Shown here one piece after another: positions 31,120 to 54,512 of a stretch of 64,000 bases of DNA. The stretch comes from an uncultured Acidobacteriota bacterium. Its GTDB lineage: Bacteria; Acidobacteriota; Blastocatellia; RBC074. The stretch's first letter is position 1. Every line of letters begins with the position of its first letter. Position numbers and translations under genes: made by a program. The stretch lies in assembly GCA_963796275.1 (NCBI GenBank), contig CAWCKY010000006.1, positions 1,920,001-1,984,000 of the forward strand. The letters run 5' to 3'. The notes below the pieces were generated by a model. The model saw nothing but the letters and a program-made list of their open reading frames with translations, did no database searches and had not been told where the DNA came from.

Positions 31120-31938
31120 TCAATGGGAATCAAGAGGACTGCGTACGCCTAGGCCGCCGCGATTTAGCACGTGTGTGTAATCATCATCGTCGTCCGCACA
31201 TCCTGGTGACCGAGTAATACCTGAACTTACGAATGTCATAACTTGATTCCAGCAAATGTGTGGCAAAGCTGTGGCGGAATGTATGGCAGCCCGCATGTTT
31301 GCTGATTCCAGCATCGCGAATCGCACGTTTGACCGCCTTCTGCAGTGCTGATGGTTGAGATGATGGCGTCTTTCTATTCCTGAACGCGGGTCAATGGAGC
31401 GTTTCGAGGCTGGGAAAATATACTGCCATTTCCGTCACTTTTCGGCGTTCGGGTATTTTCGCGATAGCGCGTATGGCAGGTCAACCGTTCCGAATCCTTC
31501 ACGAACATCTTCTTCGTGCAAAGGGTGATTTCCACCAGATGGTCTTTTAAACGATCATGCAACGAGCGCGGCAACATCGTCACACGATCCATATCGCCTT
31601 TAGCCTCACGCACGGTGATCTGGTGTCGCTCGAAATCAAAATCCTTTACACGCAGGCGAAGGCATTCCAGCAATCTGAGTCCCGAGCCATAGAGCAAACT
31701 GGCCATAAGACGATTAGTTCCGTTTAGCTGAGCGATGACCGATCGAGCTTCTTCAGGCGTAAAGACTTCATGTAACCGCGTCGTTTTCTTGGCTCGCTCA
31801 AACTGAGTAACCGGACCAATATCCTTGTGCAATACCTGTCCGTAGAGATATAAGAGCGTAGAGCGCCTGATTTTGTGTTGATGAAGTGACTGCAAGCTTG
31901 ACGGCGAGATGTGTGAGAAATTCGCGAATTTCTTCCAA
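31120..31938 (-). pseudogene. intI: Integron integrase pseudogene, 5'-truncated, about five or more frameshift/stop lesions
   Basis: Segments [67 protein letters not shown] (IntI-specific insert), [38 protein letters not shown] spread over several frames. Confidence 0.93.
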
Positions 31939-31975
31939 CCCTGGCTCGGCGGCTTCGGTGCAACAGTTGTTAGGC
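31939..31975 (-). repeat. Inverted left half of an attC fused to the intI remnant
   Basis: Reverse complement GCCTAACAACTGTTGCACCGAAGCCGCCGAGCCAGGG matches the left arm of the array attC consensus. Confidence 0.85.
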
Positions 31976-39392: not shown

Positions 39393-39479
39393 GCCTAACA
39401 AATGTTGCACCGGAGCCGCCGAACCGGTGTTCTTGTAAGTCCAGGCAACGCGGCGGCCCGGTGAACTCATCCGTTATTC
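39393..39479 (+). repeat. attC (type A)
   Basis: GCCTAACAAATGTTGCACCGGAGCCGCCG..CGGCGGCCCGGTGAAC..GTTATTC. Confidence 0.88.
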
Positions 39480-50886: not shown

Positions 50887-51726
50887 TTGACGCTACCGAT
50901 GAGGCGGAAGCGCACGGGAGGGAACGTGCCAAACTTTCAATCGAAGCCGTTGAAGAGCGGTCATGCCCCGATCAACGGGATCAAGGTATATTACGAGGTG
51001 CATGGGCACAGAGACGGGCTTCCGCTCGTTCTGCTTCACGGTGGTGGGTCCACCATTGAGGTCACGTTCAGCAGAGTTCTGCCGGTTTTCGCCCGCAACC
51101 GCAGGGTCATCGCGGTCGAAGAGCAGGGGCATGGCCGGACGACCGATCGCGATGCGCCAGTCACATTCGAATCCTCTGCGGATGACATCGCGGCTCTCCT
51201 CGGCTACCTGACGATCGAGAAGGCGGACGTCTTTGGATTCAGTAACGGCGCCAGCGTCGCTCTCCACGTCGCTATGCGACATCCACAGCTCGTTCGAAAG
51301 TTGGTCTACGCTTCATCGATGACAAAGAGGGACGGCGCTCATCCGCAGCTCTGGGAATTCATGAAGCAGGCGGACTTCTCCAACATGCCGCAACCGCTCA
51401 AGGACGCATTCCTTAAGGTGAACCCGGACGTGAATCGGCTCAAAACCATGCATGACAAGGATGCCGCGCGGATGCAGAATTTCAAGGACATCCCGGAGGC
51501 ATTGCTAAGGTCGGTGAGTGCACAGACGCTGATTGTTATTGGTGATCAAGACATCGTGAAAGTTGAGCATGCGGTAGAGCTGACTCGCCTGATTTCAGGC
51601 GCACGCCTGCTTATCTTGCCCGGTGGGCACGGTGACTATCTTGGCGAAGCCGTGATGACGCAGAGAGATACCCGCTACCCCGAGCTAACCGCGCAGCTGA
51701 TCGAAGAGTTCCTCGACTCTAACTGA
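50887..51726 (+). CDS. Alpha/beta hydrolase
   Basis: LLHGG, EEQGHGRT, GFSNGA nucleophile motif; start uncertain. Confidence 0.9.
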   Translation: MTLPMRRKRTGGNVPNFQSKPLKSGHAPINGIKVYYEVHGHRDGLPLVLLHGGGSTIEVTFSRVLPVFARNRRVIAVEEQGHGRTTDRDAPVTFESSADDIAALLGYLTIEKADVFGFSNGASVALHVAMRHPQLVRKLVYASSMTKRDGAHPQLWEFMKQADFSNMPQPLKDAFLKVNPDVNRLKTMHDKDAARMQNFKDIPEALLRSVSAQTLIVIGDQDIVKVEHAVELTRLISGARLLILPGGHGDYLGEAVMTQRDTRYPELTAQLIEEFLDSN

Positions 51727-52809: not shown

Positions 52810-52861
52810 GGTGTGAAGAGAAGAACGAAAAATTCTGCATCACCTCTATCAGGTGCACGAG

Positions 52862-53347
52862 ATGAACACCAAGTCGATTTATAAATCGCCTGCGGGCGAA
52901 AGAGCGATAATGGCCTGGTATGATGCTCTGTTGGCTCGTTGGCCAGTACCTTGCACAACGCTAGACGTAGCCTCACGCTTTGGCGCCACCTTTGTCATCG
53001 CCAGCGGAAACGAATCGGCCCAACCGCTGGTACTCATTCATGGCGCAGGCTCGAACTCCGCCATGTGGGCAGGCGATGTTGGCGAATACAGTTGTAACTA
53101 CCGGGTGTATGCCGTTGACCTTCTCGGGGAACCCGGCAAAAGTGCGTCGATACGCCCGGACTGGAATAGTCCCGCCTATGCCGAATGGCTTGGCGATGTA
53201 CTCGACGCCTTGAAAGTAGAAAGGGCCACCCTCATCGGCCTGTCGCAAGGTGGCTGGACAGCGCTCAAGTTCGCTACTTCCCAACCGGAGCGGGTAGACA
53301 AGCTTGTGCTTTTGAGTCCTGGCGGTAGGTCTCTAGAACATGCCTAA
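52862..53347 (+). pseudogene. Alpha/beta hydrolase, C-terminally truncated
   Basis: LIHGAG, GLSQGG; ends just after LVLLSPGG at an attC R'' box, lacking the catalytic Asp/His half. Confidence 0.75.
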
Positions 53348-53729
53348 CAAACGTTGCGCCGCAGACGCCGCCAGCCTCAGCAGCAACAGCGACGGCGCAC
53401 AAGATCGCACGGTTGTATTACAGCCTGGTGAAAAACGGAAGAGAGTATCAGGAGCAAGGAACGCGTGCGTACGAAGAGCGAGAGCGGATCGTGGCTAATC
53501 TGGAGAAACGCGCGAAGACGCTCGGGTATGAGCTCGTCGCGAAAGCAGCATAAGAAACGCGGCGGCAGGAAATCGGAGGAAAGGTAGTGAGAAGGAAAGG
53601 GTCGTGGGAAAATTGCAGGAGGACGTGTACCTTGATCTGTAGAATCCAAAGGGCTGTTTCTTAAGAGCCGCCGGGCCTGAGTATATTGAAAACCGAGGAT
53701 AAAACGGCGGCACTTCATACGCATTAACC
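53342..53729 (+). repeat. attC interrupted by an IS110 remnant
   Basis: Left arm GCCTAACAAACGTTGCG at 53342; remainder GAGCCGCCGGGCC..TTGAAAACCGAGG..CGGCGGC resumes at 53665. Confidence 0.7.
53371..53667 (+). mobile_element. IS110-family remnant: transposase C-terminus plus right end
   Basis: Unlisted frame ATATAHKIARLYYSLVKNGREYQEQGTRAYEERERIVANLEKRAKTLGYELV, stop 53553; ends GTTTCTTAAGAG. Confidence 0.8.
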
Positions 53730-54436: not shown

Positions 54437-54512
54437 GGACAAATGTGGCACGGAGCGGGGGAGTTGCTTTAAAGTCGATGCCAAACGGCGGCCCGGTGAA
54501 CTCCTGCGTAGA
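54437..54512 (+). repeat. Degenerate attC (type A)
   Basis: ACAAATGTGGCACGGAGC..CGGCGGCCCGGTGAACTCCTGCGTAGAT. Confidence 0.65.

Follow-up and report, generated by a model that had tools for sequence, protein, structure and literature searches.

The 64,000-nucleotide stretch analysed here, referred to throughout as the window, belongs to contig CAWCKY010000006.1 of an uncultured Acidobacteriota bacterium and contains an array of integron cassettes, in which one attC site is interrupted by the 3' remnant of an insertion sequence (IS) of the IS110 family, that is, of the bridge recombinases. An earlier inspection of the letters alone (the sequence-only reading) had described this remnant as an IS110 tail inserted inside an attC, and had proposed that it comes from a subgroup other than the known attC-targeting IS1111 elements. 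We have analysed the locus together with full-length relatives of the remnant. The features on which the argument rests are the following.

52853..53347, + strand: truncated alpha/beta-hydrolase cassette open reading frame (ORF) ending in the R'' box; Pfam Abhydrolase_1
53342..53364, + strand: attC left arm; R'' box GCCTAAC (53342-53348), then 16 nt whose last three bases are CAG (GAG in the family consensus)
53365..53370, + strand: six ambiguous nucleotides, ACGCCG, at a deletion junction, from the alignment with the transposase (tnp) family and with attC
53371..53553, + strand: 3' stump of an IS110-family recombinase gene; last 60 codons and stop codon TAA (53551-53553), with a two-codon gap relative to the family
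53554..53667, + strand: right non-coding end (RE) of the IS; 114 nt, with the terminus GTTTCTTAAGAG at 53656-53667
53668..53729, + strand: attC right arm, degenerate; CCGCCG...CGGCGG kept, L' and R' boxes decayed

The recombinase stump and the split attC

Read from 53371, the frame of the stump gives PASAATATAHKIARLYYSLVKNGREYQEQGTRAYEERERIVANLEKRAKTLGYELVAKAA, and its translation, PASAATATAHKIARLYYSLVKNG...LEKRAKTLGYELVAKAA up to the stop, has a large number of homologues. Indeed, an exhaustive phmmer search of 1.84 billion representatives with this fragment returned 765 proteins at E<=1e-3, the best at 1.6e-21, and a word-index search for longer proteins returned 31, among them proteins of 464-465 aa with both PF01548 (DEDD_Tnp_IS110, the N-terminal DEDD/RuvC-like domain) and PF02371 (Transposase_20, C-terminal). 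The two domains were found in P0037, P0072, P0109, P0133 and P0137 and, by precomputed Pfam assignments, in P0152, P0156, P0157 and others. The fragment matches the extreme C-terminus of the 464-465 aa proteins with up to 88% aa identity, the best case being residues 412-464 of P0152. The assignment of 53371-53553 to the C-terminus of an IS110 transposase, which a peptide devoid of IS110 homologues could not have sustained, is thus borne out. Pfam recognizes no family in the fragment alone because the stump lies beyond the last domain: the domain pair that characterizes the IS110 family is carried by the full-length relatives, and the window copy retains 60 residues C-terminal of PF02371. Aligned with 18 full-length homologues, the fragment falls on the last 61 columns with a two-residue gap, and a maximum-likelihood tree, built as the sequence-only reading had advised, groups it in a clade (99/90*) with L059, P0152, L061, P0157 and P0160, a placement which is indicative only, as the fragment fills 13% of the columns. 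The IS4321 transposase, standing in for the IS1111 group, sits on a very long branch. At the nucleotide level, the tail of the window copy is at most 80% identical to any sampled relative, and a DNA search of 60 relatives' genomes gave a single weak match (G053, 73% over 110 nt).

The non-coding tail downstream of the stop, estimated from the letters at about 110 nt, is indeed present, its length being 114 nt. The 12-base terminus is found as an identical right end in 10 of the 15 related loci listed, the other five being one-base variants (L041 and L069) or cut by contig ends (L064, L067 and L070). Its last three bases, the GAG core at 53665-53667, are common to the IS and to the attC, and from there the window continues as CCGCCGGGCC...CGGCGG, the attC right arm, to about 53729. 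Set against the consensus of the attC family of the window, which reads GCCTAACAAAyGTTGCACCGGAG up to the break and CCGCCGAACC...GTTAGGC beyond it, this agrees with the claim that the attC resumes exactly after the shared GAG. Likewise, the left arm proposed at 53342 is real: GCCTAAC and the following 16 nt differ from the consensus at two positions, ten of the last twelve bases being those of GTTGCACCGGAG, and the distance of 16 nt from R'' box to break lies inside the range of 14-17 nt observed in the relatives. The remnant has the orientation of the cassettes, as is also the case for the relatives. The right arm is degenerate: its R' box reads ATTAACC where GTTRRRY is expected and starts 55 nt past the break, against 58-62 nt in the relatives; its L' region is no longer complementary to the left arm and the two arms do not pair.

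The junction between the left arm and the recombinase stump can be placed only to somewhere in 53356-53371. The bases found there, CAGACGCCGCC, are readable as diverged tnp codons (Q-T-P-P in the window, Q-K-G-P in the family) and equally as the CCGCC-like attC sequence that normally comes after GAG. On another reading, which we consider less probable, the two arms (53342-53370 and 53668-53729) would stem from different attCs, in which case a deletion would have run from just inside an upstream, uninterrupted attC (after ...CAGACGCCGCC) to about codon 403 of an IS lying in a downstream attC, removing the cassettes in between together with the left part of the IS. Such a history would explain why the 6-8 nt after CAG resemble CCGCC(G) and why the arms are not complementary to each other, and it would not be out of place where the adjacent hydrolase gene is also truncated, deletions being frequent here. 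Yet the alternative reading of the same bases as codons is followed by the HMMER alignments, which begin at the Q of the CAG codon, decay of a split attC would abolish complementarity just as well, and this left-arm variant is seen in no sibling among the 19 attC starts listed of the 23 nhmmer matches. Insertion of the element into one attC, which has decayed since, remains the reading that we prefer.

Intact relatives, their targets and their left-end RNA

Relatives were collected from a scan of a genome collection (45 loci) and from the best 80 of the 405 loci of a metagenome scan. Full-length elements measure about 1.78 kb and occur in metagenome-assembled genomes (MAGs) of Blastocatellia and in metagenome contigs. 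One Blastocatellia MAG harbours eight near-identical copies (L014-L020 and L040), whose comparison defines an element of 1779 bp; in seven of the eight copies an R''-type box precedes the left junction by 17 nt, and past the right junction, at about 61-62 nt, five copies have GTTRRRY and two more GTTATGC. The close clade to which these copies belong (L014-L020, L040, L041, L044 and L059-L071) provides 20 left junctions, one being common to L059 and L060, and RYYYAAC is found 14-17 nt upstream in 12 of them (11 independent), with one-base variants in L066, L067 and L070; the junction of L064 has 9 nt of flank and is not scorable. Flanks of at least 50 nt are available for 17 right junctions; GTTRRRY stands at 58-62 nt in nine of these and a one-base variant of it in four (L015, L018, L041b and L059). 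The first base of the right flank may be C, G, A or T. Aligned in this way, most flanks correspond to attC halves, interrupted at the same position and in the same orientation, and the targeting of attC proposed from the window alone holds for the clade of its relatives. Most full-length relatives thus appear to sit in attCs with a uniform orientation, between ...CCGGAG and CCGC... and with the R'' box 14-17 nt upstream. Site- and orientation-specific insertion into attC, by which IS1111-attC elements are recognized, is therefore seen here as well, which shows behaviour, not membership.

Some loci depart from the simple arrangement. Within the MAG of L014, L017 has a non-attC left and an attC right flank, and L019 an attC left and a non-attC right flank; these mixed flanks look like the product of recombination (inversion or deletion) between IS copies. 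On L065 the right end of one copy (18-28) and the left end of another (755) lie about 730 bp apart, each in an attC, and therefore adjacent attCs of one array can both be occupied.

The left non-coding end of the relatives (277-301 nt) is longer than the right end (98-125 nt), which is the arrangement expected of the IS110 group. In an alignment of ten left ends, whose mean column identity is 74%, RNAalifold predicts 59 pairs, of which seven inside the guide region were removed before scoring. The remaining 52 pairs are formed in 96.1% of the cells, 16 of them with compensatory changes. On four of five measures none of 500 shuffles reaches the observed value, and 19 of 500 reach it on the fifth, further pair types; when the pairing partners are slid, pairing falls to 30-48%. 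The predicted fold consists of an outer stem around two domains, each of which is a hairpin followed by a single-stranded stretch. These results indicate that the left end encodes a structured RNA, and covariation supports the predicted fold. Rfam reports nothing at the gathering threshold in the window, and at E<=1 on L059, L014 and L066 it gives two chance miRNA matches only.

Within the first domain the single-stranded stretch has the form AAGCCCG-[8-9 nt]-TTTGG, where the bracketed bases are those of the top strand of the left flank, GAG included. Guide segment and flank are both GCACCGGAG in L041, L059, L064 and L065, TCAAGAG in L061 and L063, and AGCGGAG in L068 and L069. The variants of guide and flank covary (ACCGGAG, TCAAGAG, AGCGGAG), and an ACTGGAG guide is met with an AGTGGAG flank. 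Over 12 IS species, 97 of 108 positions are identical between guide and left flank, compared to a permuted mean of 86.4 +/- 2.3, and 3 of 20000 permutations are as high; L062, whose left end reads GAGCT, stands outside this count. In the second domain, the stretch ATCCCG-[TTTAAGAG]-AGTAC corresponds to the right end plus GAG. This donor-like segment, TTAAGAG or TTGAGAG, tracks the end of the RE, as evidenced by L069, whose right end is ...TTGAGAG and which carries TTGAGAG, and it occupies the same alignment column in three of four species, the fourth (L059) having a one-base variant.

The guide GCACCGGAG of L041, L059, L064 and L065 is identical to the left flank of the attC consensus of the host. 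The idea that the element is programmed against the attC family of its host thus applies to the relatives, the window copy having lost its guide, so that its own programming is unreadable. The same holds for the bridge RNA which the sequence-only reading had wished to see predicted: a structured RNA with a matching segment is found in the left ends of the relatives and none in the surviving 114-nt tail.

A sub-lineage nested in the attC-targeting clade (L061:2216-4004, L062 and L063) has the guide TTCAAGAG, and its three independent insertions follow GATGCTCAAGAG, without attC features. This looks like a natural retargeting. Full-length copies in targets other than attC would have spoken against the proposal made from the window; those of this sub-lineage are in such targets, but, as their guide has changed to match, they support RNA-guided targeting rather than refute it.

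The right ends contrast with the left ones in that conservation is limited to a GTGT motif and the last 12-16 nt, and eight aligned right ends of the family have no shared structure (RNAalifold, 0 pairs). The tail of the window folds no better than shuffled sequences (z = -0.19; 75 of 200 shuffles as stable). By eye, this tail contains GCGGCGGC, the complement of attC CCGCCG, and TCGGAG, and guides of the IS1111 type lie downstream of tnp, as far as the available part of the source goes (PMC11187229), so that one might suppose that the 114 nt still encode a functional guide or regulatory RNA directed against GCACCG-GAG-CCGCCG. We hold this to be highly unlikely, in view of the lack of conserved pairs and of stable folding, the little conservation of the right ends, the covarying guide segments lying in the left end and the blank Rfam result in the window. 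The right end was accordingly rejected as a candidate guide RNA, and the guide-bearing RNA is placed in the left end. We also note that an invariant left-end motif, (G/A)ATGAAAC (A2 columns 35-42), has a 5-nt complementarity (GAAAC/GTTTC) to GTTTCTTAAGAG in five of six elements, which may reflect an additional guide contact or else a short sub-terminal repeat.

A dead copy in a decaying array

The window copy has neither left end nor guide RNA and lacks about 87% of the recombinase gene, 60 of some 465 codons being left. It is very probably what is left of an IS110-group element that targeted attC, a dead footprint without present function. The 9.46-Mb genome (7 contigs, a MAG 94.7% complete) contains no other tblastn match to the family and no PF02371 match. 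Two further footprints are found outside the window. The first, at C7:672450-672490 (-), consists of at least 16 right-end bases, with the terminal GGTTGTTTCTTAAGAG, and abuts CCGCCGAGCC... of a well-preserved attC right arm ending in GTTAGGT. The other, at C2:777939-778061 (-), comprises the first 124 nt of the left end (nhmmer E 1.2e-14), is cut before the guide segment and is preceded by an attC-like left arm, GCCTACC...GCGCCCGAG. For IS1111-attC elements of Pseudomonas, Tetu and Holmes (2008) reportedly described a comparable fate, with degenerate footprints remaining in chromosomal cassette arrays after the elements have died out of their host.

If such an element moves as IS621 does, its two ends would be joined at the core once it is excised as a circle, the left-end RNA would bridge the circle junction to the attC sequence ACCGGAG, and the recombinase would exchange strands at the common core, leaving GAG at both junctions. 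An element inserted in this manner into an attC of the distal part of the array may then have lost its left end, the guide RNA and about 87% of the recombinase gene through one or more deletions, and the split attC may have decayed afterwards. Homology, the conserved terminus, the position in attC, the RNA structure and the covariation of guide and flank in the relatives are observed; the chemistry of transposition, the expression of the RNA and the order of events are what we infer from them.

The hydrolase ORF which precedes the left arm spans only positions 2-102 of the 245 of the Abhydrolase_1 profile and is cut after the nucleophile motif; a paralogue of 279 aa lies at 50887-51726. This truncation, some 15 nt upstream of the attC left arm, is the scar of a second deletion, and at least two deletions have therefore shaped the locus.

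The surrounding array shows the traits of an integron, with attC sites of the type R'' RYYYAAC ... R' GTTRRRY, co-oriented promoterless ORFs and an intI-like gene nearby. With an nhmmer profile derived from seven attCs, 23 sites are detected in the genome, of which 15 lie on the + strand at 33380-54509 of the window, and the attC at 39393-39479 folds as a classical imperfect hairpin (z -2.48). A genome-wide 12-mer scan with 2 mismatches was discarded as an attC finder, being too unspecific (822 matches). At least three ORFs (68, 173 and 79 aa) now make up the intI-like gene at 31120-31963 (-), with a TGA and with TIGR02249 matches that change frame; the gene is probably a pseudogene, and the cassette array may therefore have lost its mobility. 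Towards the distal end, the attC sites (54439-54509, on to about 56330) are degenerate, with GGGACAA in place of the R'' box and GCGTAGA in place of R', and small co-oriented ORFs go on past them, from which it appears that the array is decaying at this end. With its three dead footprints, its fragmented intI and its decayed distal attCs, this single genome is a record of the part that such elements play in the decay of sedentary integrons. In terms of annotation, stumps of this kind split attCs and hide cassette boundaries from automatic integron finders.

Relation to IS1111-attC elements, sister clades and IS621

According to the available parts of the sources, in IS1111 elements the left end is short, the right end is long and encodes the seekRNA beyond tnp (Siddiquee et al. 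2024, PMC11187229), and there are sub-terminal inverted repeats of 7-17 bp (PMC11187229, PMC11208160). The same partial text describes the IS1111-attC elements ISPa21, ISPst6, ISKpn4 and ISPa25 as IS1111 members with a seekRNA downstream of tnp, and a length of about 1.5 kb is deduced for ISPst6 from the coordinates quoted there (PMC11187229). The IS110 group, within the same limits, is characterized by a long left end with the bridge RNA and by a short right end (PMC11208160, PMC11187229). The clade under study resembles IS1111-attC elements in being formed by DEDD-recombinase ISs with RNA guidance and with site- and orientation-specific insertion into attC. This sameness of target (attC, one end, one orientation), and the fact that the literature found credits attC targeting to the IS1111 group only, as far as its accessible parts go, would favour assigning the stump to the described group of ISPa21, ISKpn4 and ISPst6, with the seekRNA downstream of tnp. 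However, unlike in those descriptions, it is the long left end of the clade that is structured and bears the guide-like segments, and the right end that is short and unstructured. Moreover, in all six elements compared, exact inverted matches between the first and the last 60 nt do not exceed 5-6 bp, and the sub-terminal inverted repeats of 7-17 bp are thus absent. P0152 is 26% identical over 121 aa (E 6e-5) to the transposase of IS4321 (IS1111 group, plasmid R751), and the element length of about 1.78 kb also differs from that of ISPst6. Considering the left-end RNA, the short unstructured right end, the absence of repeats and the low identity to IS4321, the clade is therefore not placed in IS1111-attC, and an assignment of the stump to that group is very improbable. 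These features support an IS110-group rather than an IS1111 organization, with the clade set apart from ISPa21, ISKpn4 and ISPst6 by their descriptions, and they agree with the subgroup difference which had been suspected from the tail alone.

The same protein family has sister clades at 47-53% identity, in Anaerolineae, Acidobacteriota and proteobacterial plasmids, which have proteins of the same length but do not target this attC site. Enterobacterial plasmids often carry relatives at about 50% identity (61 records from Citrobacter, 21 from Enterobacter and 7 from Klebsiella). L139, on a Citrobacter plasmid, adjoins an IS66 element and L140, on a Pseudomonas plasmid, lies between IS4 and IS66, neither being in an integron. 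Elements of the Anaerolineae type (L022, L073 and L080) have, like this clade, the left-end motif CCCG-guide-TTTGG, with the guide TTTGCGAG matching a flank ...TTGCGAG. The flank of L080 is one arm of an inverted repeat (CTCGCAATGAC...GTCATTGCGAG), and the targets of L022 and L080 look like hairpins of the REP (repetitive extragenic palindrome) type. In a further clade (L083-L135, about 47-49% identity; for example L087:1486), the 36 left junctions found have, without exception, ...GTTAGCG and then TCCCTCCAACGC; roughly a dozen of them have a common upstream repeat, GGCTGGAGGCAGTCAGGTGCAG, which is either an attC R' end or another repeat family, and RYYYAAC is present 75-91 nt upstream in only five.

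Taken together, we consider it rather likely that an undescribed lineage of the IS110 group, with a left-end guide and a 465-aa recombinase, has evolved attC targeting independently of IS1111-attC, and that it colonizes chromosomal integrons in soil bacteria of the Acidobacteriota type, inactivates them and later dies out there, its guide tracking the local attC (ACCGGAG, AGCGGAG or ACTGGAG) and having been retargeted at least once to the non-attC sequence TCAAGAG. In the literature found, some of it as partial text, no left-end-guided attC-targeting IS is described, ISfinder and the supplementary tables of Durrant 2024 lying outside the search, the latter of which may list such targets. Searches combining attC, IS110 and bridge RNA gave attC only in the reference list of one paper, and nothing on IS110 and attC in Acidobacteria integrons, within the portions of text available.

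A number of observations weigh against the reading of the stump as the remnant of an attC-targeting element of the IS110 group. As regards the window copy, right ends are only 54-61% identical to those of the relatives at the nucleotide level and its own guide is unreadable; among the sampled relatives there is no full-length element with its own right end; and its non-pairing arms may derive from different attCs. An intact copy may also have escaped assembly in a MAG of this completeness. Concerning the clade, the left flanks of L017 and L061-L063 and the right flanks of L019, L061, L062, L069 and L071 are not attC-like. Only left guides are identified in the left-end RNA, as a candidate right target guide (A2 columns 57-64: CGGCTC, AAGCTC, GCTC, ACTC) fits L014, L061, L064 and L068 and does not fit L059, L066, L069 and L070; and a guide of 7-9 nt alone would be too short to give preference for attC over the many other ACCGGAG sites. 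Finally, the IS1111 group was represented by IS4321, the comparison with ISPa21, ISKpn4 and ISPst6 being made by published descriptions only.

The interest of the finding lies mainly in the intact relatives, which form a seemingly undescribed branch of attC-seeking elements. Should the proposed independent origin be true, attC would be a convergent landing pad for both branches of bridge recombinases, and the clade would be a ready-made natural series of reprogrammed bridge RNAs. Targeting of attC appears not to be confined to the IS1111 branch; the branch with left-end guides seems to do likewise, which would make attC a safe harbour on which RNA-guided recombinases have converged. They are also targets of group IIC-attC introns. 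For studies on the reprogramming of bridge RNAs, the clade supplies natural pairs of guide and target, one retargeting event included.

Among the closest known systems is also IS621 (Durrant et al. 2024), in which, according to the available part of the source, the left target guide corresponds to the left top strand of the target plus the core, and the left donor guide to the right end plus the core (PMC11208160). Within that same partial description, the clade resembles IS621 in having a long left end with a structured RNA and two guide-bearing regions, a short right end, a core common to both junctions, and segments of the left target and left donor types. It differs from IS621 in that its target is the integron attC and not REP-like or other sites, in that the core appears to be (G)AG instead of CT, and in that, in the predicted fold, both guide-like segments would lie 3' of the hairpin in their domain.

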